Below are positions 3,306 through 34,289 of a DNA stretch of 34,289 nucleotides, one piece after another. Under the pieces are notes generated by a model. It ran no database searches. It saw nothing but the letters and a program-made list of their open reading frames with translations, and had not been told where the DNA came from. A program made the translations under genes and the position numbers. Positions within the stretch are counted from its first letter, which is position 1, and the number at the start of each line of letters is the position of its first letter. Origin of the DNA: a virus; the IMG/VR virus record IMGVR_UViG_3300029913_000009, positions 1 to 34,289 of that record. One strand, given 5' to 3'.

Positions 3306-3350
3306 CAATTTGCCCCTACTATGACATAGAAAGTCAAGGTGTTTTGGGCA

Positions 3351-11986: not shown

Positions 11987-12018
11987 CCGCAATCCTGCCT
12001 ATATAAGAAAGCGGTAGT

Positions 12019-12336
12019 CTAAAGGACTAAATCCCGTATTTCCTTGAACCCCAACAGCCTCTGGCGTTCTATGTCGAAAGCTTTACCATGCCGGTGACCG
12101 CACTTGATGTGGATCATTTCGTGGATTAAGGTGACTTTGGAGATAGCTCTCCACCCCCCAACGAAAGGGTTGATTCGGATTCTCCATATCTTTTCTTCTT
12201 CCAGATATAAACAGTCACCGAAGGTGGCTCCCCCTAATGGCTCCCACCAAACCACAGCGTCAGGTAGTTCTCCACCAAAGTATAGTTTGTTGAACTTGAT
12301 ATAGTATCTCTTAAGCTGGCGGTCGGATTTTAGCAT
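12019..12336 (-). CDS. Free-standing SprT-like zinc metalloprotease (105 aa from ATG 12336; GTG at 12342 listed).
   Basis: 'LYFGGELPDAVVWWEPLGGATFGDC...TLIHEMIHIKCGHRHGKAF'. SD GGGAGG 9 nt upstream of the ATG. Confidence 0.6.
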   Translation of the reverse strand: MLKSDRQLKRYYIKFNKLYFGGELPDAVVWWEPLGGATFGDCLYLEEEKIWRIRINPFVGGWRAISKVTLIHEMIHIKCGHRHGKAFDIERQRLLGFKEIRDLVL

Positions 12337-12363
12337 TTCCACAGCCTCCCGGAGCCCGAGGCT

Positions 12364-12903
12364 CTACTTGAAGGAGACGGTAGTCATCGACTGAAGAGCT
12401 TTTAGATAAGTAAGACCAGCAGTTTTTACAGTGGTACTGCTGTTTTTAGGCGTCCTACCCTGCTCTTCCTGATGCGCCTCAATCGTGTCGAAGGCATAAT
12501 CGAAGGGGACTTCAGAGATGTCACCCACGCGGTCGTCATCCCAGCCGGTTGGATAATGGGCGAGGTACATTTCTAAAGCTGAATCCAAATTCGGGAAACC
12601 CAACATAATCTTGTACTCATCTAGCTTCCCCTTTGCATCCAACTGCTCTATCACAAACACCTTGTCCGACGCCTCATCTTCGCCAATATAAACATCCAGA
12701 CCCTCCCCGTCCCTGCCGTTAACGTCGGAGACGTAGCCATAATCGCATTGCATGGTCCTCTTCCAAGGCTTGCCCTGTTCATCCTTGCCTGTACGTACTG
12801 AATTTTTTGGCCATTCGATTACAATGGGAATGCCTCGGTACTCAGTGGAGTGCCGCTGAGACAATTTTTCAGCTATGCGAAGAAACTTGGATTCAAAATT
12901 CAT
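12364..12903 (-). CDS. ppa: Inorganic pyrophosphatase (family I) homolog, 179 aa.
   Basis: 'VIEWPKNS' against E. coli PPase 'VIEIPANA'. 'DYGYVSDVNGRDGEGLDVYI' against '[20 protein letters not shown]'. 'DAKGKLDEYKIMLG' against 'DEAGEDAKLVAV'. The size matches. Confidence 0.55.
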   Translation of the reverse strand: MNFESKFLRIAEKLSQRHSTEYRGIPIVIEWPKNSVRTGKDEQGKPWKRTMQCDYGYVSDVNGRDGEGLDVYIGEDEASDKVFVIEQLDAKGKLDEYKIMLGFPNLDSALEMYLAHYPTGWDDDRVGDISEVPFDYAFDTIEAHQEEQGRTPKNSSTTVKTAGLTYLKALQSMTTVSFK

Positions 12904-13058: not shown

Positions 13059-14690
13059 ATGGTTGGAGGAGACCGCTTGAGCGTTAAAAAGAAGAAGCCA
13101 GCAACACCCCCGGAGAAGTCCCCATTAACGCTTTCTCCACCGTCTAAAGAAGACATAGTAGCCGACGCGCAGCGAGTCGCTAAGTTGTTGCCTGAGGGAG
13201 AAGAACTAACCCGAGGATTCTATCGTAATCACAGGAACAAGCAGCTTATTAGAGAAAAGGATGTAGAGTGGCATTTTCCTAAGTTTGGCGGTCTTGTTCT
13301 GGCTGCGGGTTTGAAGGCGACAACGCAACAAGTAGAAGAGAACCCCTCTCAAACCATCACGGATGAGGAGCAAGACCTTATCTACGATAAGGACTATGTT
13401 TACAACAAGGAGACGGACACATATATCACCCCCCTTCCTCGCACCCTTGGTGGGAAAAGCGTTATCCTTGCGGGAGAGATTCATCGTGCGATGTTGAAAG
13501 CCTACTCTAACTGGGATGGAGCGTCCGAGACCATCAATGAAATTTGTCGTCGGTTTAAATTCCGTCGCGATTGGTTCATGGAGTATAAGGCTCTGCATGG
13601 ATGGACCCATGATAAAGAGCCCTTCACCAACGAGGAGCTAATCACTCGTGATGTGGATGATATGGCGGATGACGCGGTTCAACAACTTCGTCTGAAGGTA
13701 TTCAACTCCTATCAGAAAAAAGTTTGGCAAGCAACCATTACCGATGCGAAGAAGTGGAACCATTTTGAGCAGTCAGTTTTACTCCCTCTGAGCGAACAGA
13801 TTAAGCAAACGCTGTCAGACTATAAACCGCCAATGCTTACTCTTCCAAAAAGTGATGAGCCCTACGCTCTTGTGGTAGCCCCTTTCGACTTGCACTTCGG
13901 TAAGTATGGTTGGATGGATGAAACCGGACAAGGATACAGCCGCTCTGAAGCACGTGATTTGCTTATGGACAAAACCAATGAGTTGGCAAAGTATGTTGCC
14001 AAACTGGGTCGTCCTGAATTGGTCGTAGTGGCTTCTGGGTCAGACTGGTTTCATATTGACAATCAATGGAATACCACAACACGTGGTACACCACAAGACA
14101 CTGATGGAACACCTTCACAGATTTTGATGGAGGGGTGTCAATTGGCCTACGACCACATCGAAATGCTTCGACAGCTTGCTCCCATCAAATACCTCAATGT
14201 CCCCGGCAATCATGATTACAACAACGCCATCAGTATGATGATGTTTTTGCTTGGCAAATACACGGGGGCCAAAGATGTGGAAATTATTCAGTCTCCACAG
14301 AAGCGGCAGTATGTAGGGTACGGTAACTCCCTTCTTGGCTTCGGCCATGGGGATTGCGTGGCCCCGAAAGACATGATGTCGGCTATGGTAAAAGAGGCGA
14401 AGGATTTGTTCACTCACAGCGAGTTTCAATACTTCTTCTCAGGGCATCTACACCACGAGATTGCTCGGGAGATTGGAGGACTGACCCACTACCAACTGAA
14501 GAGTTTGTCAGGGTTAGATCGTTACCATTCAAAGCATGGCTACATTACTTCAGGTCGTGCGTTACAGTCCTTTGTGGTCAGTCGTACAAGTGGTGTTACG
14601 CTTCAGATTAACTGCAACGTCATTGGAGACACGCTGTTCGGGGTGAAGGAACGAAACGTTAACACCAAATCGAAAGCGAGGCATTACTAA
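13059..14690 (+). CDS. 543-aa protein with a C-terminal calcineurin-like metallophosphoesterase domain (SbcD/Mre11-like motif set). N-terminal ~250 aa unknown.
   Basis: 'VVAPFDLHFG', 'GSDWFHIDN', 'NVPGNHDYNN', 'GFGHGD', 'FSGHLHHE'. Confidence 0.65.
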   Translation: MVGGDRLSVKKKKPATPPEKSPLTLSPPSKEDIVADAQRVAKLLPEGEELTRGFYRNHRNKQLIREKDVEWHFPKFGGLVLAAGLKATTQQVEENPSQTITDEEQDLIYDKDYVYNKETDTYITPLPRTLGGKSVILAGEIHRAMLKAYSNWDGASETINEICRRFKFRRDWFMEYKALHGWTHDKEPFTNEELITRDVDDMADDAVQQLRLKVFNSYQKKVWQATITDAKKWNHFEQSVLLPLSEQIKQTLSDYKPPMLTLPKSDEPYALVVAPFDLHFGKYGWMDETGQGYSRSEARDLLMDKTNELAKYVAKLGRPELVVVASGSDWFHIDNQWNTTTRGTPQDTDGTPSQILMEGCQLAYDHIEMLRQLAPIKYLNVPGNHDYNNAISMMMFLLGKYTGAKDVEIIQSPQKRQYVGYGNSLLGFGHGDCVAPKDMMSAMVKEAKDLFTHSEFQYFFSGHLHHEIAREIGGLTHYQLKSLSGLDRYHSKHGYITSGRALQSFVVSRTSGVTLQINCNVIGDTLFGVKERNVNTKSKARHY

Positions 14691-19868: not shown

Positions 19869-20369
19869 TTAAGATTCTCCCCACACGGGCGAGAACACCC
19901 TTGACTTCAAATACTGAACCGCAGCCATAAACCGCTCCAAATTTTCTTCGAATTGACCGATACCCACGTTGCAACGATGGCACAGAAGACCACGTACACT
20001 CTTTCGTTTGTCCGTCTTTGCGACTGCATGGTCATGGTCAACGTAGGGTAGTCGGCTTTCAGTGAACTCCAAACGGCAAATCGCGCATTTGTTATCTTGC
20101 AGCTTGAGTAGCAACAAAAAATCATCGGTGCTTAGACCATACAGACGTTTGAGCGATGAGGATTTTCTGATTGCCTTATACTGTTCGGGGTGGCGCTCAT
20201 TCCAATTTCGTACATAGCCTTTGAATCGGTCTGAGTTTTCTGCATACCACTTTTTCTGACGTAAACTCTCGCATTTGTTACAGGCAGACTTAAGCCCATC
20301 CTTGCTTCGTTTCCTCCTACCAAACTTACCGGGCTTACCACACTTGGTACACAATTTGACGACTTCCAT
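19869..20369 (-). CDS. Endonuclease VII-family (His-Me finger) protein with N-terminal Zn-finger. Putative free-standing homing endonuclease or resolvase.
   Basis: 'CAICRLEF...VDHDHAVAKTDKRKSVRGLLCHRCNVGIG'. ATG at 20369 preceded by GGGGGTG. Confidence 0.7.
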   Translation of the reverse strand: MEVVKLCTKCGKPGKFGRRKRSKDGLKSACNKCESLRQKKWYAENSDRFKGYVRNWNERHPEQYKAIRKSSSLKRLYGLSTDDFLLLLKLQDNKCAICRLEFTESRLPYVDHDHAVAKTDKRKSVRGLLCHRCNVGIGQFEENLERFMAAVQYLKSRVFSPVWGES

Positions 20370-20382
20370 TAAGAAACACCCC

Positions 20383-22095
20383 CTATAAAAGGGGTTCAAT
20401 AGTCTCCTCTTTTGGTAACTCGATACCATGGTCTGTAAGGAACCGCTCAGCCATACGTTTTATGTAGTCGGCTTCCACTTGCAGTTTCGTCACAAGGTCT
20501 TGATTTGGGTCTCGTACACCCTCAATCTGCTGCCGCTTGATTCCCAAGATGTCTCCCATAATCGGGTCTGAACCATGCTCGGACAGCAGATAATAAATCG
20601 TGCATGGTTCGTCCTGACCATCGCGGTGGATACGACCGACACACTGCTCATGAACTCCCGGTGACCAGTCAAGTTCAGCAAACACAGCAAGGTGACATAC
20701 GTCCTGTAACCCATCCATACCCGCTCCGGCACGCAGCGAGACAAGCAGGACTCGCGACTTGCCGCTGATGAGGGCTTGCTTGGAGGCTTCCTTTTGATTC
20801 GGTGTCTCGGAGCCGGTGTACATGACCGGGTTGAATTCCTTCAACCGCTCCATGAGGATGTCGTAGACCTCCCGATGCCATGCGTAGACCACCACGGGCT
20901 CCGTATTGTCGGCGATGAGGAACTTGACAAACTCGGCCACGTACGGTGCCTTGGCGATGCCGGTGGCTTGCCGCATCTTGATGTCAAACTCGCCAGCCGC
21001 TTGCATCTTCTGGCCTTTGAAGTCTTGCGTCTGTTTGAGAATCAGCTTGGCAAGTTCGATAGCCTGACCCTTCATGTGGTCGAGTGCCTTGGCGTCCACA
21101 TCAATGTGGTGAGGCACCACAGTGACAGGCGGGAGTTCACGCTTGACCTCGATGCGGGTGCGGCGGAGCATGAGACCGTTCTCGCGTGCGAACAGACCGA
21201 ACGCTGCGGGGTCTTTGATTTTCAGCTTGTCGCCGAACTGGTAAATGCACCACTCGCGAATGAACTCATCCTTGGTGCCCAGTGAATCCGGGAGCAGCAC
21301 GTCAATGATGTTGAAGATTTCTCCGCCGTAGTTGTAGATGGGCGTGGCCGACGTACCGAGGCGGAAGGTACACGCATCGGCGATGTGTTTGGCCGCGTTG
21401 TATTTCTGCGTGCCGTTGTGGCGGAGTTCCTGAATCTCATCAAATACAACCGACTTCAGCAGGGGGGCGAGGGTCTCTGCCCACCCGCCAAGTTTGGCGT
21501 AGTTAGTGATGAACACATCGGGTAATCTACCCTTAGTGTACTTCAGGATGTCGTAAGGAGTACCCTTCTTCAGAATGTGCGTGGTGAGGTCAGTGAACTT
21601 GTTCACTTCGTCACGCCACTGAAAAGGCAAGTGAGTGAGGGTGACGACAAGCGCCGGGAGCGTCTTCGGTTCGCTGAGTCCCGCGATGGCTGTGCAGGTT
21701 TTACCCAGCCCAACGTCGTCAGCCAACAACAAACCACCAGCCGTCAACCACATGTGAGCGGCCAACGCCTGATATTCCCGTGGAGGAATCTTCAACTTGA
21801 AAGCTTCCCGCTCCATGTGTCCATTGAGGAGTTGTTCAATAAGAGACTGACGCTCACGATGCTCCTGAGCCCGTTCAGCGAGAAGCTCAAAAGGGTAGAC
21901 TTCTAATGGATAGCGGTCGAGGAACCACTGAAGGTCGCGGCAATTCTCAGGCGTAGCAGAGATAGACTGCTTGCCGTACTGCCACGTATCAATCTTCGCG
22001 AACACACGTTTAAGCCTGATAGCAACGTGCGGCTCGACCACTAAGTCCCAACACTGATTACGTTTATTGTAGGTACACGAACCATAGGTACGCAT
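20383..22095 (-). CDS. SNF2-family DNA helicase/translocase, 570 aa.
   Basis: 'LLADDVGLGKTCTA' (motif I), 'VVFDEIQELRH' (motif II), 'SLRAGAGMDGLQ', 'QCVGRIHRDGQ' (motif VI). Confidence 0.85.
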   Translation of the reverse strand: MRTYGSCTYNKRNQCWDLVVEPHVAIRLKRVFAKIDTWQYGKQSISATPENCRDLQWFLDRYPLEVYPFELLAERAQEHRERQSLIEQLLNGHMEREAFKLKIPPREYQALAAHMWLTAGGLLLADDVGLGKTCTAIAGLSEPKTLPALVVTLTHLPFQWRDEVNKFTDLTTHILKKGTPYDILKYTKGRLPDVFITNYAKLGGWAETLAPLLKSVVFDEIQELRHNGTQKYNAAKHIADACTFRLGTSATPIYNYGGEIFNIIDVLLPDSLGTKDEFIREWCIYQFGDKLKIKDPAAFGLFARENGLMLRRTRIEVKRELPPVTVVPHHIDVDAKALDHMKGQAIELAKLILKQTQDFKGQKMQAAGEFDIKMRQATGIAKAPYVAEFVKFLIADNTEPVVVYAWHREVYDILMERLKEFNPVMYTGSETPNQKEASKQALISGKSRVLLVSLRAGAGMDGLQDVCHLAVFAELDWSPGVHEQCVGRIHRDGQDEPCTIYYLLSEHGSDPIMGDILGIKRQQIEGVRDPNQDLVTKLQVEADYIKRMAERFLTDHGIELPKEETIEPLL

Positions 22096-22367
22096 CAGTG
22101 TCCTCTCAAATAAGCTATAGCTGCTTCAAGGAGGGTAATGTCATCATTAAACCCACCTAAGGACGGGTTGCATACATTGCAGAGCAGCCCTCGAACTTCT
22201 CCGGTCACGTGGTCATGGTCCACGGCAAGTCGTTTTCGCAGCTTGGAGATGTGTGTTTTGCAAAGCCCATTCGGCCTCTTTCGGTCTTTGTGGAAAAATT
22301 TGCGTAGCTTGTCCTGTCTGCATCTTGTGCAGATAGCTCGGTCTTCAGGTGTGGTTGTTCTATTCAT
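22095..22367 (-). CDS. Endonuclease VII-family protein, 90 aa (T4 gp49-like recombination endonuclease or HNH-type homing endonuclease).
   Basis: 'CTRCRQDK...[23 protein letters not shown]'. Confidence 0.75.
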
Positions 22368-22370
22368 CTA

Positions 22371-22541
22371 CTATTGAATGTCAAACCCGAGAAGCTTCCA
22401 CAGTTCTTGTGCCATCTGTACCTTCCCATGTTTAATACCCAAGTCGTAGGTATCTTGATAGTCGCAGGGGAACTCATACACATCGTCTCCATTGGGCTGG
22501 TTTTTTAGTCCTTCAAGATACGCTTTCAAGTCGATTGACAT
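22371..22541 (-). CDS. Small hypothetical protein (56 aa).
   Basis: ORF; ATG verified at 22541. Confidence 0.4.
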   Translation of the reverse strand: MSIDLKAYLEGLKNQPNGDDVYEFPCDYQDTYDLGIKHGKVQMAQELWKLLGFDIQ

Positions 22542-23020
22542 CTTAGCTCCTCGCGAATCGCCATCCACAACTTGCCCAACCAGTTCCGACCCTTACCGTC
22601 CTCACCCCAACCCCAGTAGCTATCCCGCCACGAGTCTTCAATCAATTCGCGGTTGCCGGTCGCCAGCAGCTTGCGGCGTACGTACTCATGCTGTGCTGCC
22701 TTGGCACGGAGGATGTTAGCCATGATGGGGAGTTTAACCATATCCCAGTCCGGCTTCCTGTGTTCCTTGTTTTTCTCGGCTATTTTGAACGCTTCATGAG
22801 CGGAGGGGGCTTGTACGAGAGCAAGCTGAATACCGACTAGTTGGAGTTGTTTAAACGGGGTATCGGCTGTGTAGTTAAACTTCTCCCAATGGTAGACCGC
22901 CTCAGAGGTATCGAAACGGATATTCTCCCACTTCAAGGTGAATGCAGAGAAGTTGGACAGAACATAGAAGTCCTGCTCGTAGAAGAACACCTGAGTGTCG
23001 GTGTCAAGCTTGTGGTTCAT
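22526..23020 (-). CDS. NADAR (YbiA-like, DUF1768) domain protein, 164 aa.
   Basis: 'VFFYEQDFYVLSNFSAF' N-terminal motif. 'DSWRDSYWGWGEDGKGRNWLGKLWMAIREEL' C-terminal motif. The ATG at 23020 forms an ATGA overlap with the upstream gene. Confidence 0.75.
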   Translation of the reverse strand: MNHKLDTDTQVFFYEQDFYVLSNFSAFTLKWENIRFDTSEAVYHWEKFNYTADTPFKQLQLVGIQLALVQAPSAHEAFKIAEKNKEHRKPDWDMVKLPIMANILRAKAAQHEYVRRKLLATGNRELIEDSWRDSYWGWGEDGKGRNWLGKLWMAIREELRCQST

Positions 23021-23196
23021 TTTGCCCCTCGCAGTAGTGTCGTGTGGTTCTGTTGATAGAATTGTTGAAAACCCTTTGGGCCGGGGCATCTCATCCAATC
23101 CTGCATACTCTTATGTGTCCAGTCTTGCGTCTTCTTGCGAAAACGCATTGTCCTACCGCAGTCTTCGCACTTCTGTCTTATTTTGGCGTCGTTCAT
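23017..23196 (-). CDS. Small Zn-finger protein ('CEDCGRTMRF...WMRCPGPKG').
   Basis: ATGA overlap at 23196. Confidence 0.45.
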   Translation of the reverse strand: MNDAKIRQKCEDCGRTMRFRKKTQDWTHKSMQDWMRCPGPKGFQQFYQQNHTTLLRGAK

Positions 23197-23414
23197 ATAG
23201 CCCATCCATTGTCTTCGACGTTCTTGATGAACTTGTTCACAGCCTTGTCCATCGGTTCAAAGTAATCAGTCCCGTTTTGGTCAGGGTAATAGGTGTTCAG
23301 GAGAGCCCGAAGTTTACCTTTAGCCTCTTCCCACAGTATCCCTCGCATGGAAGTCAAGATACGGTCGTCGCTCATTACTTTCTCCTTTGGGTCGGTGTCA
23401 ATCTTACGATTCAT
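23193..23414 (-). CDS. Small hypothetical protein (73 aa).
   Basis: ORF plus GAGGG SD. Confidence 0.35.
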   Translation of the reverse strand: MNRKIDTDPKEKVMSDDRILTSMRGILWEEAKGKLRALLNTYYPDQNGTDYFEPMDKAVNKFIKNVEDNGWAI

Positions 23415-23589
23415 CACCCTCTTGTTTTCCAAACTCCTTTTCGTAGAGTTTCCACACGCCGGAAGCTTCACAGTGGGAGAAGTAGTCACCGATGCCATGG
23501 TCTTCTCTCGGTCCGGGACACTTCTTTCCACACTGGGCGTGAATAGCGTCCAACAAAGCCCTCCTTCTTATTTCTTTGGCTTCCTTCAT
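23404..23589 (-). CDS. Small Cys/His-containing hypothetical protein (61 aa).
   Basis: ATGA overlap with the upstream stop at 23589. Confidence 0.4.
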   Translation of the reverse strand: MKEAKEIRRRALLDAIHAQCGKKCPGPREDHGIGDYFSHCEASGVWKLYEKEFGKQEGDES

Positions 23590-23960
23590 TCGTTGTCTCC
23601 ATACTTACCGCCGGGACGATTCATCTCTTCGATGGATGCCCAGCACGAATTCTTTGGGTCAGTGACACGAGTAAAGGATTTAGCTCCAATAAGGGGGGCT
23701 GGTCTGGTATGATATGCCCATCCCTCAGAGCCATCGTACTCACTCCGGTCGAGCCACCAATCATCTCCAACAATAACTAAATCGTTAGCAATCTCCTGAC
23801 CGCCATAACCTGCGTCGTACTCAATGTCAGCGATGGCAGTAAACTCTTCCCATGTGATTTGGTACTCACCGTCATAACTCCCAACCCATCTAATGGTATT
23901 GGGGGATTTCCCTTTGTATTCAAGGTAGTTTAGGGTTTCTTTGAGAAGATTCATGCTCAT
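23586..23960 (-). CDS. Hypothetical protein, 124 aa.
   Basis: ATG verified; overlaps the upstream stop. Confidence 0.5.
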   Translation of the reverse strand: MSMNLLKETLNYLEYKGKSPNTIRWVGSYDGEYQITWEEFTAIADIEYDAGYGGQEIANDLVIVGDDWWLDRSEYDGSEGWAYHTRPAPLIGAKSFTRVTDPKNSCWASIEEMNRPGGKYGDNE

Positions 23961-24529
23961 CCTTCTTGATTTGTCAGGGCTAGAAAAGCTAACTTTGAGG
24001 CGTCTACATCCATGCTCTTAAGCAATCGAGCCCGTCTTAGGTTGCCCTCGGCCTGACGTTCTTTGTTCGTGACGCAATCCTGTACTTCTTTTGAGTTATC
24101 CGCGACAAAGTACCCACTATTTGTGGAGCAGATGATGATCCCCTTTTCAATCCACCATGCCACAGCGGCACGAAATTGGCGACGAGTGCCATCGGAGTCT
24201 GGTTCATTTATCTGTGTGAGAATGTCCTTGGTAGTGACCACCAAAGACTTTCCGATGGAGAGGTACCGGGGGATGGCTTCGACGTATGCCTTCCTGAGCT
24301 TCATACTGACAACCTGACCTGTTTCCTCATCGGTGTAGAGATACTCGATGTGATCCAAGTCGTCATCGGTAGCGAGGCGGAGTTTGTCGGCGGGTAGTAT
24401 CCGAAACTCTTTTTTGTCTTTGCTATTGGTCGGGTGTACTTTGTGACGCCCTTCTACCTTGTAGTCGGTCTCTACAATAGTACACAAGAGGTTCTCGGGA
24501 ATGTATACTGCCAAGTCTCCAGTGTTCAT
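23957..24529 (-). CDS. Hypothetical protein (190 aa from ATG 24529).
   Basis: ATG 2 nt after the upstream stop. Confidence 0.5.
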   Translation of the reverse strand: MNTGDLAVYIPENLLCTIVETDYKVEGRHKVHPTNSKDKKEFRILPADKLRLATDDDLDHIEYLYTDEETGQVVSMKLRKAYVEAIPRYLSIGKSLVVTTKDILTQINEPDSDGTRRQFRAAVAWWIEKGIIICSTNSGYFVADNSKEVQDCVTNKERQAEGNLRRARLLKSMDVDASKLAFLALTNQEG

Positions 24530-24531
24530 AC

Positions 24532-24825
24532 TTACTGAATACTGCAAGGATCGGTGGTATTTACAATCTCCGCCAGAATATCTCCGTGACAAGTTAACTT
24601 GGGTTTGCACCAGCAGCCAAGGGTTTTGCCACGAAGTTCATGAAGATGATCGAGCAGGTCTGGGTTGGAAAGAAGATAAGCACGGTATTTGGCTAGGACT
24701 TCCTTTCGGTTGCCATCCGAGCCAACATGGAAGGGGTTGTGCCAAATTGACTCGGAAAACTCTTGAAAGGCACGACCAATATAGAGGTCGAAGGATTCCT
24801 TACGAACATGCACAACTCGGGTCAT
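24532..24825 (-). CDS. DUF4326 family protein, 97 aa.
   Basis: 'HNPFHVGSDGNRKEVLAKYRAYL...LRGKTLGCWCKPKLTCHGDILAEIV', the hallmark 'GCWC.P..CHGD[IV]L'. Confidence 0.7.
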   Translation of the reverse strand: MTRVVHVRKESFDLYIGRAFQEFSESIWHNPFHVGSDGNRKEVLAKYRAYLLSNPDLLDHLHELRGKTLGCWCKPKLTCHGDILAEIVNTTDPCSIQ

Positions 24826-24830
24826 GTACC

Positions 24831-25028
24831 TTAATACTTGACTTTGCGGATGGTGTCCATAAATCCAGTAGCATAAAGGATAAGAAGTATTTGACCTGCG
24901 GATACGGCGTCGATGACATACTCCGCCGTACCGGGTGTAAAGAAGGCATGGACTACCTGATTCATCACCATCGAAAAGAAGAAGGCGATTGCAAAGAACC
25001 CTATAGTTATGGCAACTTTTAGTACCAT
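24831..25028 (-). CDS. Small two-TM membrane protein (65 aa).
   Basis: Two hydrophobic helices 'VAITIGFFAIAFFFSMVM' and 'AGQILLILYATGF'. Confidence 0.45.
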   Translation of the reverse strand: MVLKVAITIGFFAIAFFFSMVMNQVVHAFFTPGTAEYVIDAVSAGQILLILYATGFMDTIRKVKY

Positions 25029-25055
25029 ACACACTCCGTACTAACGTATCCCATA

Positions 25056-25430
25056 TTATAAGAAACTGAGGAGAAGATGCACGATGTAAAGGGGCTTACC
25101 GTTCAAACTGTCTGGTAAGTTCTTGTGTTTGCTCATGGTAGTGAGGAGAATTAGCTCTACAACTTCTGTGTGTTGGGCATACCTCATTAGCTGGCGAGTG
25201 ACGGAGGCGAGGCTGGTGCCGCCCCCAGAGTCATCCGACTTGCACTCGATGCCAATTCCAAGGTCTGTAATCAGGAAGTCTATTCGGTCGCGGGGGGCGA
25301 GAGAATACTCTGGCTTGAAGGTAAGGTTCAGGTCGGTCAGCACCTGACCAACGCCGTGTTGCAGTTCCTTCTCACTATGGTAGCAATACTTGGTATTGTA
25401 AAGGGTGGTGCAGATGTCAGCAGCGGTCAT
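25056..25430 (-). CDS. Small PD-(D/E)xK nuclease-fold protein (VRR-NUC-like), 124 aa.
   Basis: 'RDRIDFLITDLGIGIECKSD', the D...E-x-K arrangement. Confidence 0.45.
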   Translation of the reverse strand: MTAADICTTLYNTKYCYHSEKELQHGVGQVLTDLNLTFKPEYSLAPRDRIDFLITDLGIGIECKSDDSGGGTSLASVTRQLMRYAQHTEVVELILLTTMSKHKNLPDSLNGKPLYIVHLLLSFL

Positions 25431-25635
25431 CAGGGCTCACTACAGTGCTACGCCACGGGCGACCGGCAGCAATCCAACGCTCCCGCAATTGAGCATGGTA
25501 TACAACGGCTGGTTCCGGCCCTACATCATTGTAGCCGAACTGAATCCCACACTGAGGGCAGATTTCATGCAACCCTTCAGCAGGATCAAGTTTCAGGCGG
25601 TCATAGTCACAGACAGGACATACCTTATATATCAT
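25417..25635 (-). CDS. Small zinc-ribbon protein (72 aa; 'CPVCDY...CPQCG').
   Basis: ORF plus C4 motif. Confidence 0.45.
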   Translation of the reverse strand: MIYKVCPVCDYDRLKLDPAEGLHEICPQCGIQFGYNDVGPEPAVVYHAQLRERWIAAGRPWRSTVVSPDDRC

Positions 25636-25842
25636 TGTTCTTCCGCGCTATCTGAATCTGTTCCCATGCTTCATCCGCAAGACCACGGGCAGCTATGACA
25701 ATGAACGTACGCCATCATGCCTCCTAAAAGAATACTTCTATAGTACCACTATTCGATCCGCCAGTGCCACTACCTTCCGACCCCGCCCCAGCCCATCTGC
25801 AAGGACTGTAACGTTTTCCACAGTCACAAAGGCATTTCCAAA

Positions 25843-26274
25843 CTACTTTTCTTCCTCTGTTTGGCCGTCCATTAACAATAGTGAGTCTTCCGACTCTTTG
25901 TCTTGTTCGGTCTTTGAACGCCATACAATGCCCATCTCTTTAAGTAAGTCTCTATCTTGCATTGTAATGGTATACAAACCTACACACCTACGACAATTGC
26001 ATTTGAAGTTAAGAGGATGTGTTTGAGTCCTAACATCTCGTACTCGGCGGGTTCGGCTGAACTTACGTATCATATCGTCTCCTCTTTCCGTAGGGATTTC
26101 AAATCGCTTGTTGAGGGGGAACATGCCCGATTCGACTAGCTGTTTGTGCTCAGTTTTCAGAACACTGAGACGAGCCATAGCCTCTTCTCGGCTTATCAGA
26201 TCAAGTGAGAAGTCTTCGTATAGCCGGGAGATTTTTCGTATGTATTCGGCGAACGGTTCCTCTTGAGGCTCCAT
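25843..26274 (-). CDS. Hypothetical protein, 143 aa.
   Basis: ATG verified at 26274. Confidence 0.5.
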   Translation of the reverse strand: MEPQEEPFAEYIRKISRLYEDFSLDLISREEAMARLSVLKTEHKQLVESGMFPLNKRFEIPTERGDDMIRKFSRTRRVRDVRTQTHPLNFKCNCRRCVGLYTITMQDRDLLKEMGIVWRSKTEQDKESEDSLLLMDGQTEEEK

Positions 26275-26307
26275 ACCTATAAATACCCCCTAACAAGGGA
26301 TGGGTAT

Positions 26308-27033
26308 CTAAGTTTCTGTGGCTCTGACGATGTTGACCAGTTTTACATTTTCATCAAGAATTAGATAAGATGCGACATCGCCAACCCAGCACCCAGCGTT
26401 CCAATACTCCACACCGTCACGATACTCGTGGTAGGGGCTGTGAGTATGGCCGCAAAACACATAGTCAGCTTTGAGTCCCTTGGCGACACTAATAGCTCCA
26501 TCCGCGACTTTGAAAGTCAGTCGTTGATATTTTGTGTGAAGTTTATCCAGAATTGTTGGTAGCCAGCGTTTCAGGAGGTTTCTTTTCTGAAGCCAGATAT
26601 GCAGCCCCGTTACAAAGTCGTTGAACCAAGGATTGCCATTAGCGAATAAGGCGTCGAACTGATGACCATGCATGGCGACACACGTATTGCCGTTCCAGCC
26701 CCACGTGTATTGTTGATATACAGGGACACCAAGGAGGTGCTCCATGACTTCAGTTACCCCGGCATCGTGGTTGCCTTCTACCCACACGACTTCAATCTCT
26801 CGCTTAGGGTTGGACAGTTCTCGAATAAGAGAGATGACTTGCCAGTGTTCACTGGTCAGGCGACTGAAGTTTAGGTCGGAGAAAATGTCTCCGAGGAGAA
26901 TGATACGCTTGACTTTTATTACACCAAGGTAAATCTGATTGAGCAGGTTTGTGAGTTCCCTAGCCATAGCTAGAGGTGAACCGAGATGGACATCGGAGAT
27001 TACAAGAGTGTCATAGACAGTCTCTAAGCGCAT
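26308..27033 (-). CDS. Calcineurin-like metallophosphoesterase (LpxH/YfcE-like motif pattern), 241 aa.
   Basis: 'LVISDVHLG', 'LLGDIFSD', 'VEGNHDAG', 'AMHGHQFD', 'CGHTHSP'. Confidence 0.8.
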   Translation of the reverse strand: MRLETVYDTLVISDVHLGSPLAMARELTNLLNQIYLGVIKVKRIILLGDIFSDLNFSRLTSEHWQVISLIRELSNPKREIEVVWVEGNHDAGVTEVMEHLLGVPVYQQYTWGWNGNTCVAMHGHQFDALFANGNPWFNDFVTGLHIWLQKRNLLKRWLPTILDKLHTKYQRLTFKVADGAISVAKGLKADYVFCGHTHSPYHEYRDGVEYWNAGCWVGDVASYLILDENVKLVNIVRATET

Positions 27034-29317
27034 AACTCTTTCTTCTCAAAAGAGACGACAAGTGGAATTTGTTGAATGTGTTCCAGAACCCTTCTCGCTT
27101 GGTTCGCATGTCCTCTACCTCATTAAGGAACTTAACCCCCTCAGGCCATTCAGTATTAAAATACTTCAACGCCTTGAGATATTGATATAAAATCTCAACT
27201 GCGTGATATAGGTTATACTCCACGTTGGAAGAGCGGGGATCGACAGCTTCATCACTCGCCATAGCTTCTTGTATCTCTTTAACGATGATAGCCTCATAGT
27301 TGGGATCACGAGTAGCCAACCGTTTTTCACCTTCCGGCCATGTTGGCGGTGTAGCTATGCGAACTTGTTTGTGGTATTTATCTCCTGTATCTTCATCGGT
27401 CACTTCTTCCCCGTCCTCAGTTATTTCGCTAAGGAGAGATATATAACCGTCAACCCATTGTTGGTTTTTTGTCCACTCGTCTGGATGCTTGGAGTACCTA
27501 TCAAGGAGTAGCTTTTCAAATTCAGGCCAACGGCCACGGACCACACTCGTAACGTAGTCCCTTATTGTTTCAGGGAGTTTACGGGCATTATTCCAATAAT
27601 CCTTTTTACTTTGAGGTACAAAACCACTACTACTACCACTTGAGTAGCTTTCACTGAAATCGTAATCCTCAGCGAACTTCAACAGCTTCTGTTCCAATTC
27701 AGGCCAACGTGCCTTCATGATATGGGAAGCATAGTTAATAGCTGGCATGACATCGGTGGTCTGTAAAAGACGTTCCTCAATCTCCGGGTCACGTCCCTTG
27801 ATGACACTGCGTGCATAGTCATACAACTGCTCCGGTTTGGCATTCCTTAATGTGTCAGGTTCCATCTCCAAATCGCGACTTCCACCAAGGAATTTGCGAG
27901 AGTAATTCAACAGATGAGTCGTATCTCCAATCTGGCGCAATACTACTTCAAGGGGTTTCCAGCGACCCTTGATGAATTTATCAGCATACTCGATAGCTTG
28001 CTCAGGATCACCTAGTGTCATTCGGTACTCCATCTTATCCATGCCACTGAATGTAAGCTGAGCACCGGGGAGGTCAGCCCACCTCTGATTCAAGATGGTT
28101 TCCGCATATAGTTTGATGGCTTTAGCAGGGATGGGGTTAAGCTTGGCTTTGCCCAGCTTCTTTTCAAACTCAGGCCAACGTCCCTTGATGATGCCTCGGG
28201 CATATTCAAGACAGAGGTACATAGAGTTGGTCGAGGTTGTTGCATACGTCAGAATCTTCTTCTCAGCGTCCGGCCAACGTTCTCCTTTGAGAAATTTGCG
28301 ACAATAGGACAACAGGTCGAGAGAAGGTCGTCCTTCGAGAAGAAGCTTTTCCAACCGTTCATTTGATTTTCCGGGCATGAACTTCATGCAATAACGGAAG
28401 TACACTTTGGCAGAAGGGGGCTCAGATGTATTGTATCCATAGTAACTCTTCCTGAACATTTCATCAAGCTCGGCCTGAGGCAAAGGTTGGTTATCATAGA
28501 CGGCCTTACGTAACTGGTTGTCAACTTCATCGCCATGCTTAGCGAAAGCCTTTTCAACTTTTTCCTTAGGATCATTTGCCCCAGTGAGGTACTTATACAC
28601 CCCCGGCTCACCCATCTTGGCAAGCTGGCTGATTACTTTCAGGCAGATAGGGTCAGATATAAACCGGGCGACAGTCTTCTTTGTCTTACGATAATTACCG
28701 CTTGTGGAAACAATGCCGTCTGGAATTTCAGTGTCGGTACGGTCTTTCAGTTGATTGGTAGCAGGGTGGAACTGAGCGTAGGCAGAACCTTCATCGAAGA
28801 TAACGTAGGTTGGCCCTGAACTGAGATACGTATTGCCCATGTTTTCATGAGCGGTACACCAGTTGGTACCAGCCGATAGCTCAGCTAGAGCCGGAGCCTT
28901 CGTCACTTTGTAGACGAGGATGTCCCCATCCCGGATGATGACGCTGGCACCTTCACGAATCTTTTCCCGGTTCTGTTCTTTTTTGGAGAAGTTGCCTTGG
29001 TTATCTTCGATGACAGTGAACAGGGTGCCCGGTGTGTATGAGTTAATGTCTTTGTTCCCAGTGAAGCCGGGGGCTTTCTTAAGCCGGTTGAAAGTAATAA
29101 GTTGTTCCTTAATCCGCTCCCCATCTTCAGGGAGACGGATGTGTCCCTTGGCAAGCATACGTGCTATCCAAGTGATAAAATCTGTCTGGTTGGGAGAAGG
29201 GTCAACCTGAATACACATCTCCACTTGCTCTGGAGTGAGCTTCATCTGACTGCACAGAAAATCAATTTTCTGCTGTGTCGGTCGAGCGACCAATAGGAAA
29301 TGGGATAAGAAACGCAT
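27011..29317 (-). CDS. 769-aa protein with about 7 tandem ~40-aa repeats centred on '[KR]GRWPE[FL]E'. N-terminal globular region 'NWCTAHENMGNTYLSSGPTYVIFDEGSAYAQFHP'. Function unknown.
   Basis: Peptide repeats IIKGRWPEFEKKL, FIKGRWKPLEVVL, VIKGRDPEIEERL, IMKARWPELEQKL, VVRGRWPEFEKLL, LKGERWPDAEKKI, TPPTWPEGEKRL. Mirrored at the DNA level by recurring 'ttcaggccaacg' (27521, 27702, 28168, 28270). ATG at 29317 (TTG at 29323 listed). Confidence 0.7.
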   Translation of the reverse strand: MRFLSHFLLVARPTQQKIDFLCSQMKLTPEQVEMCIQVDPSPNQTDFITWIARMLAKGHIRLPEDGERIKEQLITFNRLKKAPGFTGNKDINSYTPGTLFTVIEDNQGNFSKKEQNREKIREGASVIIRDGDILVYKVTKAPALAELSAGTNWCTAHENMGNTYLSSGPTYVIFDEGSAYAQFHPATNQLKDRTDTEIPDGIVSTSGNYRKTKKTVARFISDPICLKVISQLAKMGEPGVYKYLTGANDPKEKVEKAFAKHGDEVDNQLRKAVYDNQPLPQAELDEMFRKSYYGYNTSEPPSAKVYFRYCMKFMPGKSNERLEKLLLEGRPSLDLLSYCRKFLKGERWPDAEKKILTYATTSTNSMYLCLEYARGIIKGRWPEFEKKLGKAKLNPIPAKAIKLYAETILNQRWADLPGAQLTFSGMDKMEYRMTLGDPEQAIEYADKFIKGRWKPLEVVLRQIGDTTHLLNYSRKFLGGSRDLEMEPDTLRNAKPEQLYDYARSVIKGRDPEIEERLLQTTDVMPAINYASHIMKARWPELEQKLLKFAEDYDFSESYSSGSSSGFVPQSKKDYWNNARKLPETIRDYVTSVVRGRWPEFEKLLLDRYSKHPDEWTKNQQWVDGYISLLSEITEDGEEVTDEDTGDKYHKQVRIATPPTWPEGEKRLATRDPNYEAIIVKEIQEAMASDEAVDPRSSNVEYNLYHAVEILYQYLKALKYFNTEWPEGVKFLNEVEDMRTKREGFWNTFNKFHLSSLLRRKSYALRDCL

Positions 29318-31667: not shown

Positions 31668-34289
31668 TCAACGGCCTCTGCGATGAAATGGATTACGTAC
31701 TATCTCAGTGCCAAAACTTGCCATGTTTGATTGGATTTTCTTGATGCGTTCGAACACTTGTAAGTCACGCATCATAATCCCATCTAAACTTGCGATAATT
31801 CCCGCTGGTTGGTTTAACTGCTCTGACATGAGGATGCTCTGTCCAGTTGGGTCTATCTTCAACCCACCTTCTTCCACGAGCCACTTCTGTGCCACATAAG
31901 CACAAAGTTGAGCAGCGTCTACCATATCGTCGTGTGATCCTTTTTCCATTGGTGCTTGCACACGTATCTGATACTTGTTGATGTATTCAGCTTCTACAAG
32001 ACGTAACTCTTGGAGGAACTTCGGAACGTAGGGGAATCTGCAACGTGAGTCGCGGATGTAACCCTGAAGCACATACGCCATCTGTGAGTTGATGGTTGTA
32101 GTGAGGTTCACAAGTTCTATATTGTGAATCTTGTTCAGGTCAAGTAGCTGTACAAGTTGTTGACCGCCATGTTGGTCGGTCGCTCCGCGATAGCAAGGCA
32201 TCAAAGAGTTTAACGCCTTGAGCCATGACAAGATGTCTTCGAGAGGCAGAGTTTTGAATCCAACATACTTGTCGATACCGGGGATGGACTGCACTCCAAT
32301 ACTGTCAAACTTCTCTCCTACCATCATGCGGTCGATGTAGTCATAGACGAGATGGATGGGCTGGGCTCCACCCTTGTATTCCAAGTGGCCGATAGCGACT
32401 GCCGTAGCGTCGTTCATCATACCCAAGTCGATTGCCCAAAAGAATTGGCGACCGATTGCATTCGGGTGGAACTTGATGATGTTGAAACGAGCCGTGCTTA
32501 GGTCTGGTTCTTCCAGACCACTGATCGTTTTTTCATATCTCACGTCTGTGCAAGCACGAATCTGAGCCTCGGTAACGTACGATTCAGATGACTCTAGGAA
32601 CTGACCACCATACTCAGCCTTGAACGTGAGTGCGTTTGTCTCATATTCTTGACGAAGTGTAATGGGGAGAATAGTGGGATTCATCTCGGCGGTGGATGCG
32701 CGAAGGGTAAAGATGCCAGACTTTGGACCTCTCTCTAAAGCTTGCTTGTGAAGGTCGTACATCTTACCGACCTTTGTCCACGGGCTGGAGATGGAAAGCA
32801 CGAGGGAGTCTTGGAACATCCGGTATTGGTCATACGGGATTTCCTTTGCGGCCTTTTCACTTACCCATCCCCCACCATTGATTAGCTCGGCGTGCTTGAA
32901 GTTGATTGTGGAAGGCTTAGCAGCCGCGTAGACCTCATCTGATGCTGAGCCCTTGGCCGACCGGAAGTGGGCAAACTCATCCAGTGCAAGAAAGATGTTG
33001 GACGGACCACGGGAAGCGTTGGTGGTACAGGGGAACGATCTAACATTGATGGTCGGAGTCGTGTCACGCTTCATGCGGTCTTGATCTGAGACGAAGCCTA
33101 GTGATGCACTGGAGGATGTCTTCAGATAGGGGTTGAAGAACGGAGCCCGGTTAATGTCTTCGCGGAGCTTCTCATAAAGACGGCTGGCACCTGAGTCATC
33201 CTGAGCCATAAAGGTGAAGTCTACCGGGGAACCGGGGACAAGACTGAAGTAGTCCTGTGGGGAACGTATGCTGAGGAGCTTGTAGAGGGTGTAGGCACCG
33301 ATGGCAGACACTACCTGAGAATTATGAGTGACATTGAAGTTACTTCCGAAGAGGTAAAGACCAGATGGATTGGTGGTGGTTATGCACCGCATCTGCATTT
33401 TACCCGCAGGTTCAATGCTGGTGATGTACCTCCAATTCTGAGTGGTTTTTACTTTACTTAAGAGCCTATCAAGCTTTCTTTTAAGGCGAAACACTGGAAG
33501 GCGACCCGTCCACTTAACTAGATAAGCACGCTTACATACTTTTTTTCCTTCGGGGGAGTTTGTACACACAGGTAATTTTTCAGACCAATAGGGTTTTAAC
33601 CCAAGGGAAGCCGCAAGGAGATATACCCCCCTAGATAAGCCTTCGTTAGTATTTGAAAACTCACATTGCCCATCCAACATACAGGAGCCGTCTGTGTCCA
33701 TTAAACCCTGAAGTAAAGCCAGTCGCTGCGCTACCGATGCCCATAGGTATTTATCAGGAATATGCTTAACCTTCAAAACGCCAATGTTTCTTAAATCAGA
33801 GAGAAGCCCTCTAACCCCCCACGATTTGGGATTTTTACCTTGTCGCACATTGTACCCAGCGTGAGTAAATTCGGCGAGTATTTCGGGGTCAAGTCCAGTA
33901 ATACTTGCTGCACCTGTTGATCCATCTCCAAGCCACGCACCGAGACAGTATGGGTCTAAAGGTAACTCCTGTTCAGGTAGGGAAATCGGGTGAGTTAAGA
34001 GGATTGAGTGGTTAGCTTGCGGCTCCTTTTGGGGGTTACTAACCACCTTCAATGTTTGAAGAATCTCTTCAGTTGTTCTAACTCCCCCATTCACGGTCGG
34101 ACGTAAAAAGTGTCCTCGTCTGAACTTCCTACCGGGGTTAAATAGTCGATGATTAGGGTTTGTTGGTTCTAATTCACGACCACAGCCACAAGCACAACCC
34201 CCCTCAGTTGAAAGTTCCAATGTGTTTCTTTTACGGCGGTTGAGATTCTTACGTTCATCTTTAGTATATGTATGCCAGAGGTGCCCAGC
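31668..34289 (-). CDS. terL: Terminase large subunit (partial, 5' end outside window) interrupted by a LAGLIDADG intein.
   Basis: C-extein: Walker B 'NIFLALDEFAHF' and nuclease motif 'FFWAIDLGMMNDATAVAIGH'. The reading frame is open upstream of the listed TTG to the window edge. Confidence 0.85.
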   Translation of the reverse strand, partial: AGHLWHTYTKDERKNLNRRKRNTLELSTEGGCACGCGRELEPTNPNHRLFNPGRKFRRGHFLRPTVNGGVRTTEEILQTLKVVSNPQKEPQANHSILLTHPISLPEQELPLDPYCLGAWLGDGSTGAASITGLDPEILAEFTHAGYNVRQGKNPKSWGVRGLLSDLRNIGVLKVKHIPDKYLWASVAQRLALLQGLMDTDGSCMLDGQCEFSNTNEGLSRGVYLLAASLGLKPYWSEKLPVCTNSPEGKKVCKRAYLVKWTGRLPVFRLKRKLDRLLSKVKTTQNWRYITSIEPAGKMQMRCITTTNPSGLYLFGSNFNVTHNSQVVSAIGAYTLYKLLSIRSPQDYFSLVPGSPVDFTFMAQDDSGASRLYEKLREDINRAPFFNPYLKTSSSASLGFVSDQDRMKRDTTPTINVRSFPCTTNASRGPSNIFLALDEFAHFRSAKGSASDEVYAAAKPSTINFKHAELINGGGWVSEKAAKEIPYDQYRMFQDSLVLSISSPWTKVGKMYDLHKQALERGPKSGIFTLRASTAEMNPTILPITLRQEYETNALTFKAEYGGQFLESSESYVTEAQIRACTDVRYEKTISGLEEPDLSTARFNIIKFHPNAIGRQFFWAIDLGMMNDATAVAIGHLEYKGGAQPIHLVYDYIDRMMVGEKFDSIGVQSIPGIDKYVGFKTLPLEDILSWLKALNSLMPCYRGATDQHGGQQLVQLLDLNKIHNIELVNLTTTINSQMAYVLQGYIRDSRCRFPYVPKFLQELRLVEAEYINKYQIRVQAPMEKGSHDDMVDAAQLCAYVAQKWLVEEGGLKIDPTGQSILMSEQLNQPAGIIASLDGIMMRDLQVFERIKKIQSNMASFGTEIVRNPFHRRGR
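33321..34196 (-). mobile_element. Intein with LAGLIDADG homing-endonuclease domain inside terL. C-terminal junction '...LYLFGSNFNVTHN|S' at ~33321. The N-terminal junction is uncertain: a Cys near 34196, or upstream of the window.
   Basis: Two LAGLIDADG motifs 'YCLGAWLGDGS' and 'LLQGLMDTDGSC'. Block B-like 'QANHSILLT'. Terminal 'THN' plus Ser+1. Confidence 0.65.

Follow-up and report, generated by a model that had tools for sequence, protein, structure and literature searches.

A phage YbiA-type NADAR that pairs with DUF4326 and is uncoupled from the phage's own ADP-ribosyltransferase array

Background

Why should a phage that carries a long array of ADP-ribosyltransferase (ART) modules also encode a NADAR protein, a member of a family that removes ADP-ribose? 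The question is raised by a large soil phage, IMG/VR virus record IMGVR_UViG_3300029913_000009, of which we analyzed positions 1 to 34,289 (34,289 nucleotides, hereafter the window). A preliminary description of this sequence paired the NADAR gene at 22526..23020 with the ARTs as a DNA modification and reversal system, and held self-immunity and defense against host DarTG-type toxins to be equally open roles. We find that the NADAR belongs to the YbiA type, that it lies in an accessory island together with DUF4326, a recurrent partner, and that it is not coupled to the ARTs of the phage. Its sequence and setting suggest, at roughly even chances, an orphan counter-defense enzyme similar to the phage AdfN proteins.

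The gene at 22526..23020 encodes a YbiA-type NADAR

The 164-residue product matches the Pfam NADAR model PF08719 over its full length (model positions 1-163 of 163; E 2.8e-27; 96.4 bits for a cut-off of 35.1), as the preliminary description had supposed. The domain occupies residues 12-160, and no extension of the fold is present. The protein also exceeds the curated cut-off of NCBIfam TIGR02464 (94.3 against 73.7 bits), a family named 'riboflavin biosynthesis intermediates N-glycosidase', and matches PHROG 1017 (E 2.3e-34). In a PDB sequence search, the closest solved structure is Escherichia coli YbiA (2b3w, E 6.8e-18) and a second solved relative is the ADP-ribose-bound Phytophthora NADAR, PnNADAR (8bau, E 1e-6). 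The only PADLOC match was a weak one, of the NADAR to a component of a candidate system (E 6e-5). A longer reading of the frame from a TTG codon is possible; homologues and metagenome gene calls start at MNHKLDTD.

Counting residues by hand on the 8bau alignment, with residues as named in PMC11543638, we matched E40, K47, W92, E128, D133 and W136 to PnNADAR E43, K50, W89, E125, D130 and W133, respectively. By this alignment, E40 and K47 correspond to the Glu/Lys pair, seven residues apart, and W92, D133 and W136 to ADP-ribose contacts. None of the six residues varies when eight relatives are aligned with the protein. E128 occupies the subfamily-defining position, where it aligns with PnNADAR E125 and with the Glu of the YbiA 'LVE' motif: a Glu here marks the YbiA family, an Asp the DarT1-linked NADARs and a His the T4 gp30.3 type (PMC11125620, PMC11543638). 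Because a Glu is found at this position and the fold carries no extension, we assign the predicted protein to the YbiA type. The alignment also reveals a variable insert after the WEKF motif in this NADAR subfamily.

The NADAR is not coupled to the phage's own ARTs

A modification and reversal pair was the central proposal of the preliminary description, which suggested asking whether homologous phages co-inherit the NADAR with the ART block. They do not. In the window itself, the NADAR lies 9.6 kb from the polyvalent-protein array (whose first gene is at 12364..12903) and 15.8 kb from the nearest supported ART module (6293..6748), and a divergently oriented exonuclease/GNAT pair separates it from the ART modules. 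We searched 58 non-redundant viral or prophage NADAR loci with a hidden Markov model (HMM) built from the window's modules: ART-PolyVal occurs within 10 kb of NADAR in a single locus, on a 62-kb phage contig (L020). There (5279..11651), the NADAR follows a 459-residue ART-PolyVal protein by 0.8 kb in a head-like module, in the order 843-residue portal-like open reading frame (ORF), ART-PolyVal ORF, two small ORFs, NADAR and 380-residue scaffold-like ORF, the portal and scaffold roles being our reading of the translations. This layout fits packaging of both enzymes in the virion. A search of viral contigs for an ART-PolyVal fragment returned one locus only. Three viral loci harbor an ART domain related to that of the window's 452-residue protein (see below), and neither NADAR nor DUF4326 is encoded within 10 kb of it. 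In phage T4, the packaged ART Alt and the NADAR are 3 kb apart; the role demonstrated for the T4 NADAR is directed against host DarT1, not Alt (PMC11825919).

Comparison with cultured phages leads to the same result. A megablast search of positions 20000..27100 against these phages gave no match; protein-level searches identify Tunturiibacter phage Tunturi_5 (PP885688.1, 308.7 kb) as the nearest cultured relative, with identities of 43% for the large terminase (TerL), 60% for the SNF2 helicase, 45% for the exonuclease and 40% for InPase. Tunturi_5 keeps ART-PolyVal-type modules in three polyvalent proteins, yet its whole genome contains no DUF4326 and no NADAR at E <= 1, whether the query is the subfamily HMM or, in phmmer, T4 gp30.3 or the Bas32 protein. 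The NADAR is not coupled to the phage's own ART array. Tunturi_5 infects an Acidobacteriota host from tundra soil; since the window phage is a distant relative, a similar host is a reasonable guess.

DUF4326 is a recurrent partner of NADAR

A second statement of the preliminary description, that of a DUF4326 gene in the same tight operon, is borne out. The 97-residue product scores 90 bits against a Pfam threshold of 25 (PF14216), and its motif K67, C71, C73, C79, H80 (K..C.C..CH) is invariant across 16 sequences; a PDB sequence search found no solved relative. From DUF4326 through the SNF2 helicase, all genes are on the minus strand and are separated by 2-nt gaps or joined by ATGA or other short overlaps.

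In a sister lineage of the window phage, DUF4326 directly adjoins NADAR (in locus L011 the DUF4326 frame ends at 9988 and NADAR begins at 9995), and the window's metallophosphoesterase and five intervening ORFs are absent from these loci. In an iterated HMM search, 12 of 66 loci have DUF4326 no more than 10 kb from NADAR, or 8 of 58 once redundancy is removed. In five of these non-redundant loci the two genes share a strand at a distance of 72-507 bp, with DUF4326 either upstream or downstream; 50 of the 58 loci have no DUF4326 nearby. DUF4326 is found in 4.0% of cultured-phage records. Against this base rate, 8 of 58 has P = 0.002, a value that generously counts any genomic DUF4326 copy as falling within 10 kb, and tight adjacency has P <= 4e-9 under random placement. 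NADAR is thereby tied to DUF4326, a recurrent and order-independent partner in several unrelated phages. Identities to the sister lineage are 69% for NADAR, 70% for DUF4326, 68% for TerL and 65% for SNF2; because the first two are conserved as well as TerL and SNF2, both appear, from these sequences, to be under purifying selection.

Iyer et al. (2021, 2022) found DUF4326 in jumbo phages and giant viruses, either fused to NADAR, Macro and SLOG domains or encoded next to them. The prediction is an enzyme of rhodanese-phosphatase fold that acts on ribose-linked phosphates, or else a connection between NAD+ chemistry and the modification of DNA (Iyer et al.). The window agrees with these associations in that both domains are neighbors in a large phage and that their adjacency recurs in independent lineages. 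It differs in that the two are separate genes rather than a fusion, and in the five small ORFs inserted between them.

An accessory island with a mobile NADAR

In Tunturi_5, the homologue (219491..219835) of the conserved gene at 25056..25430 directly precedes the SNF2 helicase gene (219885). Since the genes that flank the NADAR region of the window abut in Tunturi_5, positions 22095..25056 form an accessory island, the content of which is given in Table 1. Among its ORFs, the 190-residue frame next to DUF4326 is called in the metagenome copies, and no homologue of it adjoins NADAR in other lineages; the 62-residue frame that overlaps the NADAR start is not among the metagenome gene calls. The gene at 22095..22367 probably encodes a mobile homing endonuclease. 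A second Endonuclease VII-type gene (19869..20429, minus strand) forms with it a pair that flanks the SNF2 helicase gene, and both look like mobile homing endonucleases. In the metagenome variant that is devoid of the first (L002), the helicase is called with 552 residues instead of 570.

A protein identical to the window NADAR is encoded on at least 23 metagenome contigs, with the same gene order in the six that we inspected. Because the longest of these contigs reaches 248 kb, the window phage is probably a jumbo phage. At least 120 homologues are 63-77% identical, and members of the subfamily retain 52-77% identity across very different phages, on viral contigs that span 40 to 545 kb. Two 'bacterial' homologues that we inspected, from Hwanghaeella and Aminobacter, belong to the early regions of prophages, with YqaJ/RecT or integrase genes next to them. 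Elsewhere, repeated neighbors of NADAR are YqaJ, ParB-HTH and primase genes. Such a distribution is typical of mobile phage cargo that settles among genes for replication and recombination.

Two of these loci have an unusual arrangement. The early region of the Aminobacter prophage (L008) holds two NADAR genes, 6001..6717 and 11910..12425, 5 kb apart. On an unrelated 95-kb viral contig (L024, 8298..10937), a NADAR ORF with an N-terminal extension of about 135 residues (9593..10462) separates the N-terminal half of an SNF2 helicase from its C-terminal half, and the two halves share one frame.

The preliminary description also proposed that two metallophosphoesterases might process ADP-ribose products. 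The gene at 26308..27033 does encode a Metallophos protein; no homologue of it was found in the sister-lineage loci or in Tunturi_5, and no solved homologue in a PDB sequence search. The gene at 13059..14690 is of the DNA-repair-exonuclease type (PHROG, 1.4e-55), shares 45% identity with a 'DNA repair exonuclease' region of Tunturi_5, and nothing ties it to ADP-ribose processing. We therefore rejected both as ADP-ribose processors, the one being a conserved exonuclease-type gene and the other not co-inherited.

Scans of the surroundings gave few further clues. No ART-family match was obtained among the genes scanned in 20383..27033, where the small ORFs and those at 25417..26274 were partly covered, and the scanned proteins of the window yielded no SLOG, Macro, Nudix, TIR or riboflavin gene. 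Counts of predicted promoters and terminators do not exceed the shuffled expectation. Two terminator-like hairpins on the minus strand, at 26287..26300 just after the metallophosphoesterase and at 20378..20395 at the SNF2 end, bracket the DUF4326/NADAR run, which is weak evidence. The large terminase gene (31668..34220, minus strand) encodes 850 residues with a weak LAGLIDADG_3 match at residues 165-215. The Tunturi_5 protein aligns only with residues 301-848, and the sister-lineage ORF has 1011 residues: TerL may contain an intein or a variable N-terminal insertion.

ART modules of the polyvalent-protein array

The number of ART modules given in the preliminary description agrees with ours: seven supported modules and one candidate, a YHGT motif near 10624, all within the polyvalent-protein array at 3..12903. 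Four of the seven lie in the reading frame at 3..3305, which leaves the window and was therefore absent from the ORF list; we found it through an exact-protein look-up of the 452-residue protein in metagenomes. Our own HMM locates these ART-PolyVal modules at about 2274..2846, 1605..2117, 801..1487 and 450..803, and the frame matches PF18760 in four stretches (E 5.7e-48, 163.7 bits). This frame, the first 1101 residues of a 4167-residue protein, has a ParB-like DGRHR motif, read by eye, and in longer contigs the protein also shows a cREC_REC domain.

The N-terminus of the 452-residue protein was described as DarT-like, and its fold is indeed that of an ART: strand 1 carries a conserved His and strand 5 an acidic residue. 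Its nearest structural relatives are the nucleic-acid-directed Tpt1 and DarT enzymes; at the sequence level it belongs to neither the DarT nor the Tpt1 family, and no Pfam family covers it. The family defined by residues 1-149 has the conserved motifs LYHVTY, VFLT, SDN, VPVVLR and IEVW and comprises about 21 mostly stand-alone proteins of 140-230 residues, plus three viral contigs.

Another ART-PolyVal module is split by a frameshift. Removing one G from the G5 run at 6071..6075 fuses the end of the 1984-residue ORF with the start of the next, and the joined module matches PF18760 (E 1.3e-7, 32.9 bits for a threshold of 31.2). Four other metagenome assemblies also have G5, whereas L080 has G4 and a single unbroken ORF of more than 2145 residues; the homologue in L020 likewise reads in one frame. 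An exact-pattern metagenome scan for the frameshift site gave no match. The G4/G5 difference may reflect true polymorphism, slippage at this site or an error that recurs between assemblies.

Pfam missed all ART modules in the intact 1984-, 497- and 452-residue ORFs; in the first of these it detects SprT-like, two GNAT and ParB_N domains. PDB sequence searches with two YHGT segments gave chance matches only, and hhalign detected no significant match between these segments and the 452-residue family profile. Polyvalent virion proteins with ART-PolyVal domains are known from Iyer et al. 2017, here as cited in PMC9503650. With the proteins summarized there, the window shares giant multidomain combinations of SprT-like, GNAT, ParB_N, InPase and ART-PolyVal. 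It differs in its heavy ART load (at least seven supported modules in an array of roughly 7,300 residues) and in one ART-fold domain outside any Pfam family. By analogy with this family precedent (PMC9503650), and given a structural match to a cyanophage ejection protein, the polyvalent proteins may be packaged in the virion and injected.

Table 1. Features of the NADAR island, its surroundings and the polyvalent-protein array
Feature	Coordinates	Strand	Description	Matches and remarks
Polyvalent protein, first 1101 of 4167 aa	3..3305	-	runs off window	four ART-PolyVal modules
N-terminal ART-fold domain of 452-aa protein	4335..4709	-	gene 3351..4709	H7 and acidic residue 112 conserved
ART-PolyVal module, frameshift-split	5398..6160	-		G5 run at 6071..6075
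PARP-like ART module	6293..6748	-	inside 1984-aa polyvalent ORF 6038..11992	segment H17, Y47, E73 conserved
InPase-type gene	12364..12903	-	first gene of polyvalent array	PF18823 annotation; PHROG minor-head/polyvalent families
SNF2-family helicase	20383..22095	-	downstream island edge	Pfam SNF2-rel_dom E 1.8e-18
Endonuclease VII-type gene	22095..22367	-	missing in metagenome variant L002	Pfam PF02945 E 7e-18
56-aa ORF	22371..22541	-	16-nt overlap with NADAR 3' end	
NADAR	22526..23020	-	164 aa, ATG start, YbiA subfamily (predicted)	Pfam PF08719, TIGR02464, PDB 2b3w
62-aa ORF	23017..23205	-	stop overlaps NADAR start (ATGA)	CxxC...C pattern
60-aa ORF	23193..23375	-	called in L001, L003	sequence read
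61-aa ORF	23404..23589	-	start overlaps preceding gene by ATGA	called in L001, L002
124-aa ORF	23586..23960	-	start overlaps preceding gene by ATGA	phrog_3972 E 1.9e-23
190-aa ORF	23957..24529	-	between DUF4326 and NADAR	phrog_2113 E 1.6e-9, no assigned function
DUF4326	24532..24825	-	97 aa	Pfam PF14216 E 1.5e-25; phrog_464 E 1.2e-32
124-aa conserved gene	25056..25430	-	upstream island edge	phrog_5928 E 2.5e-25
Metallophosphoesterase	26308..27033	-	241 aa	Pfam Metallophos E 7.2e-12

An AdfN-like enzyme against host ADP-ribosylation?

Every NADAR tested so far, that is DarG1, E. coli YbiA, a sigma70-linked form, T4 gp30.3 and C. crocatus YbiA, removes guanine-linked ADP-ribose from DNA and RNA. 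YbiA-type NADARs also remove the cytidine-linked form, and thymidine-linked and phosphate-end ADP-ribose are not removed (PMC11125620, PMC11833690, PMC12945103). The AdfN proteins are orphan phage NADARs of T4, Bas32 and Bas60, from three independent lineages, that counter DarTG1 in vivo (Johannesman et al. 2025, PMC11825919). The window NADAR is 47% identical to AdfN-Bas32 over 73 residues (E 5e-15), in the C-terminal half only. Because of the guanine-directed activities of NADARs, the AdfN precedent against DarTG1 and the partial homology to AdfN-Bas32, we rank an AdfN-like role first. The window protein may be an orphan phage enzyme of the YbiA type that clears base-linked ADP-ribose deposited by a DarT1-type system of the host, a reading to which we give about an even chance. 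Of the two roles that the preliminary description left equal, anti-defense is thus the better supported, and self-immunity against the phage's own ARTs is not. An accessory island that Tunturi_5 lacks is a typical setting for counter-defense cargo.

The proposed mechanism is as follows. Early in infection, the NADAR would split ADP-ribose from nucleobases of phage DNA, and possibly of RNA, by hydrolysis of the N-glycosidic bond. Guanine, modified at N2, is the presumed base, with cytosine as a second possibility, and the marks removed would be replication-blocking adducts laid by a DarT1-type or pierisin-type defense ART of the host. Clearance of ADP-ribose from phage nucleic acid would then let replication proceed. 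In this scheme the substrate, the timing and the host system countered are presumptive.

Like AdfN, the window NADAR is phage-encoded and stand-alone, has no adjacent DarT, lies among DNA-metabolism genes and retains residues that align with the catalytic Glu/Lys pair. It differs in belonging to another NADAR branch, with a Glu where T4 gp30.3 has a His at the subfamily-defining position, in being paired with DUF4326, and in having an activity that is predicted. With E. coli YbiA and the TIGR02464 (COG3236) N-glycosidases it shares the 'naked' YbiA fold, the subfamily Glu and a score above the family cut-off; it is nevertheless phage or prophage cargo rather than a chromosomal gene of a LexA operon or linked to riboflavin, and its subfamily has the variable insert after WEKF. 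As in the DarTG1 and YarT-YbiA pairs, the genome combines a NADAR hydrolase with ARTs of the H-Y-E type. Here, however, ART and NADAR are neither adjacent nor co-inherited, the ARTs sit in giant polyvalent proteins, and the NADAR has neither the BC4488-type catalytic Asp of DarG1 nor its basic DNA-binding N-terminal extension.

Several points weigh against an AdfN-like function. E. coli YbiA and T4 gp30.3 hydrolyze guanine-linked ADP-ribose in vitro but gave cells no relief from DarT1 toxicity (PMC11125620); because these two failed, an anti-DarT role does not follow with certainty from activity in vitro. The window NADAR passes the cut-off of a riboflavin-intermediate N-glycosidase family and has no detectable similarity to T4 AdfN, gp30.3 (BLASTP E 0.22). 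No DarT1-associated NADAR, that is no DarG1-type chain, appears among its PDB matches at E <= 0.01. The DUF4326 partner has no place in the AdfN mechanism as published. Finally, the presence of a DarT1-type system in the host is presumptive.

The main rival makes use of the partner: NADAR and DUF4326 would jointly break down small molecules derived from ADP-ribose, for instance immune signals of the host or toxic products of NAD+ breakdown, with NADAR cutting the N-glycosidic ribosyl bond and DUF4326 removing the ribose-linked phosphate. Such a pathway was proposed by Iyer et al., and the excess of DUF4326 in the vicinity of NADAR, tightly adjacent in five loci, speaks for it. The published NADAR activities considered here, though, concern base-linked ADP-ribose or riboflavin intermediates, and no NADAR is known to act on a signaling nucleotide; none of the SLOG, Macro, Nudix or TIR domains turned up in our scan, and most NADAR loci of the subfamily have no DUF4326 in their vicinity. 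We consider joint degradation rather unlikely, if the most serious of the competitors. The two genes could also constitute a two-enzyme cassette for de-ADP-ribosylation of nucleic acids, in which DUF4326 would perform a step beyond AdfN, for example on a phospho-ribosyl remnant or a differently linked adduct; or the cassette could shield the genome from the phage's own DarT/Tpt1-like ART in the 452-residue protein, the N-terminus of which would in that case act as a nucleic-acid ART delivered by the virion. We hold either form of this cassette to be improbable.

Self-immunity without such a cassette, with the NADAR clearing ADP-ribose that the phage's own ARTs place on phage DNA or on targets in the producer cell, is in keeping with the seven supported ART modules of the same genome. 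The structural kinship of the 452-residue N-terminal domain with nucleic-acid-directed enzymes and the close spacing in L020 and T4 would fit, and a YbiA-type NADAR does neutralize an H-Y-[EDQ] ART in the YarT-YbiA toxin-antitoxin pair (PMC11125620). Yet the ARTs form a separate and distant array, Tunturi_5 maintains its modules without NADAR or DUF4326, ART-PolyVal lies within 10 kb of NADAR in L020 alone among the 58 loci, and the loci with the 452-residue type of ART lack NADAR. Moreover, the role demonstrated for the T4 NADAR is directed against a host toxin (PMC11825919), and the phosphate-end ADP-ribose made by Tpt1-type enzymes is not removed by NADARs (PMC11833690). There is little chance that this is the function. 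Equally doubtful is a purely metabolic YbiA/COG3236 enzyme, without a part in conflict, that would hydrolyze intermediates of the riboflavin pathway or another small ribosylamine. Its TIGR02464 score, its closest structure and its E128 point in this direction, and some phage homologues are annotated as, or lie next to, GTP cyclohydrolase II. On the other hand, the window proteins scanned include no riboflavin gene, the setting is a phage accessory island and, in other genomes, prophage early regions, E. coli YbiA itself removes guanine-linked ADP-ribose in vitro (PMC11125620), and AdfN-Bas32, a proven anti-DarT1 protein (PMC11825919), likewise scores best against TIGR02464 (66.3 bits).

Conclusions

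Phage NADARs, their anti-DarT function, the association of DUF4326 with NADAR and ART-laden polyvalent proteins are all described already. Mildly new are the size and conservation of the YbiA-type phage branch, the comparative evidence for NADAR and DUF4326 moving together within an accessory island, without coupling to the ART array, the ART-fold domain family that lacks Pfam coverage, and the G4/G5 difference that splits an ART module. A heavy ART load in polyvalent proteins does not by itself require a dedicated reversal enzyme. On the practical side, DUF4326, which about 4% of sequenced phage genomes encode and whose function is only predicted, forms a concrete pair with NADAR through repeated adjacency in either order. 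If the AdfN-like reading is true, the window NADAR would represent a further branch of anti-DarT NADARs, YbiA-type, large, highly conserved and horizontally mobile, and this would suggest that base-directed ADP-ribosylation of DNA is a common defense in soil bacteria.

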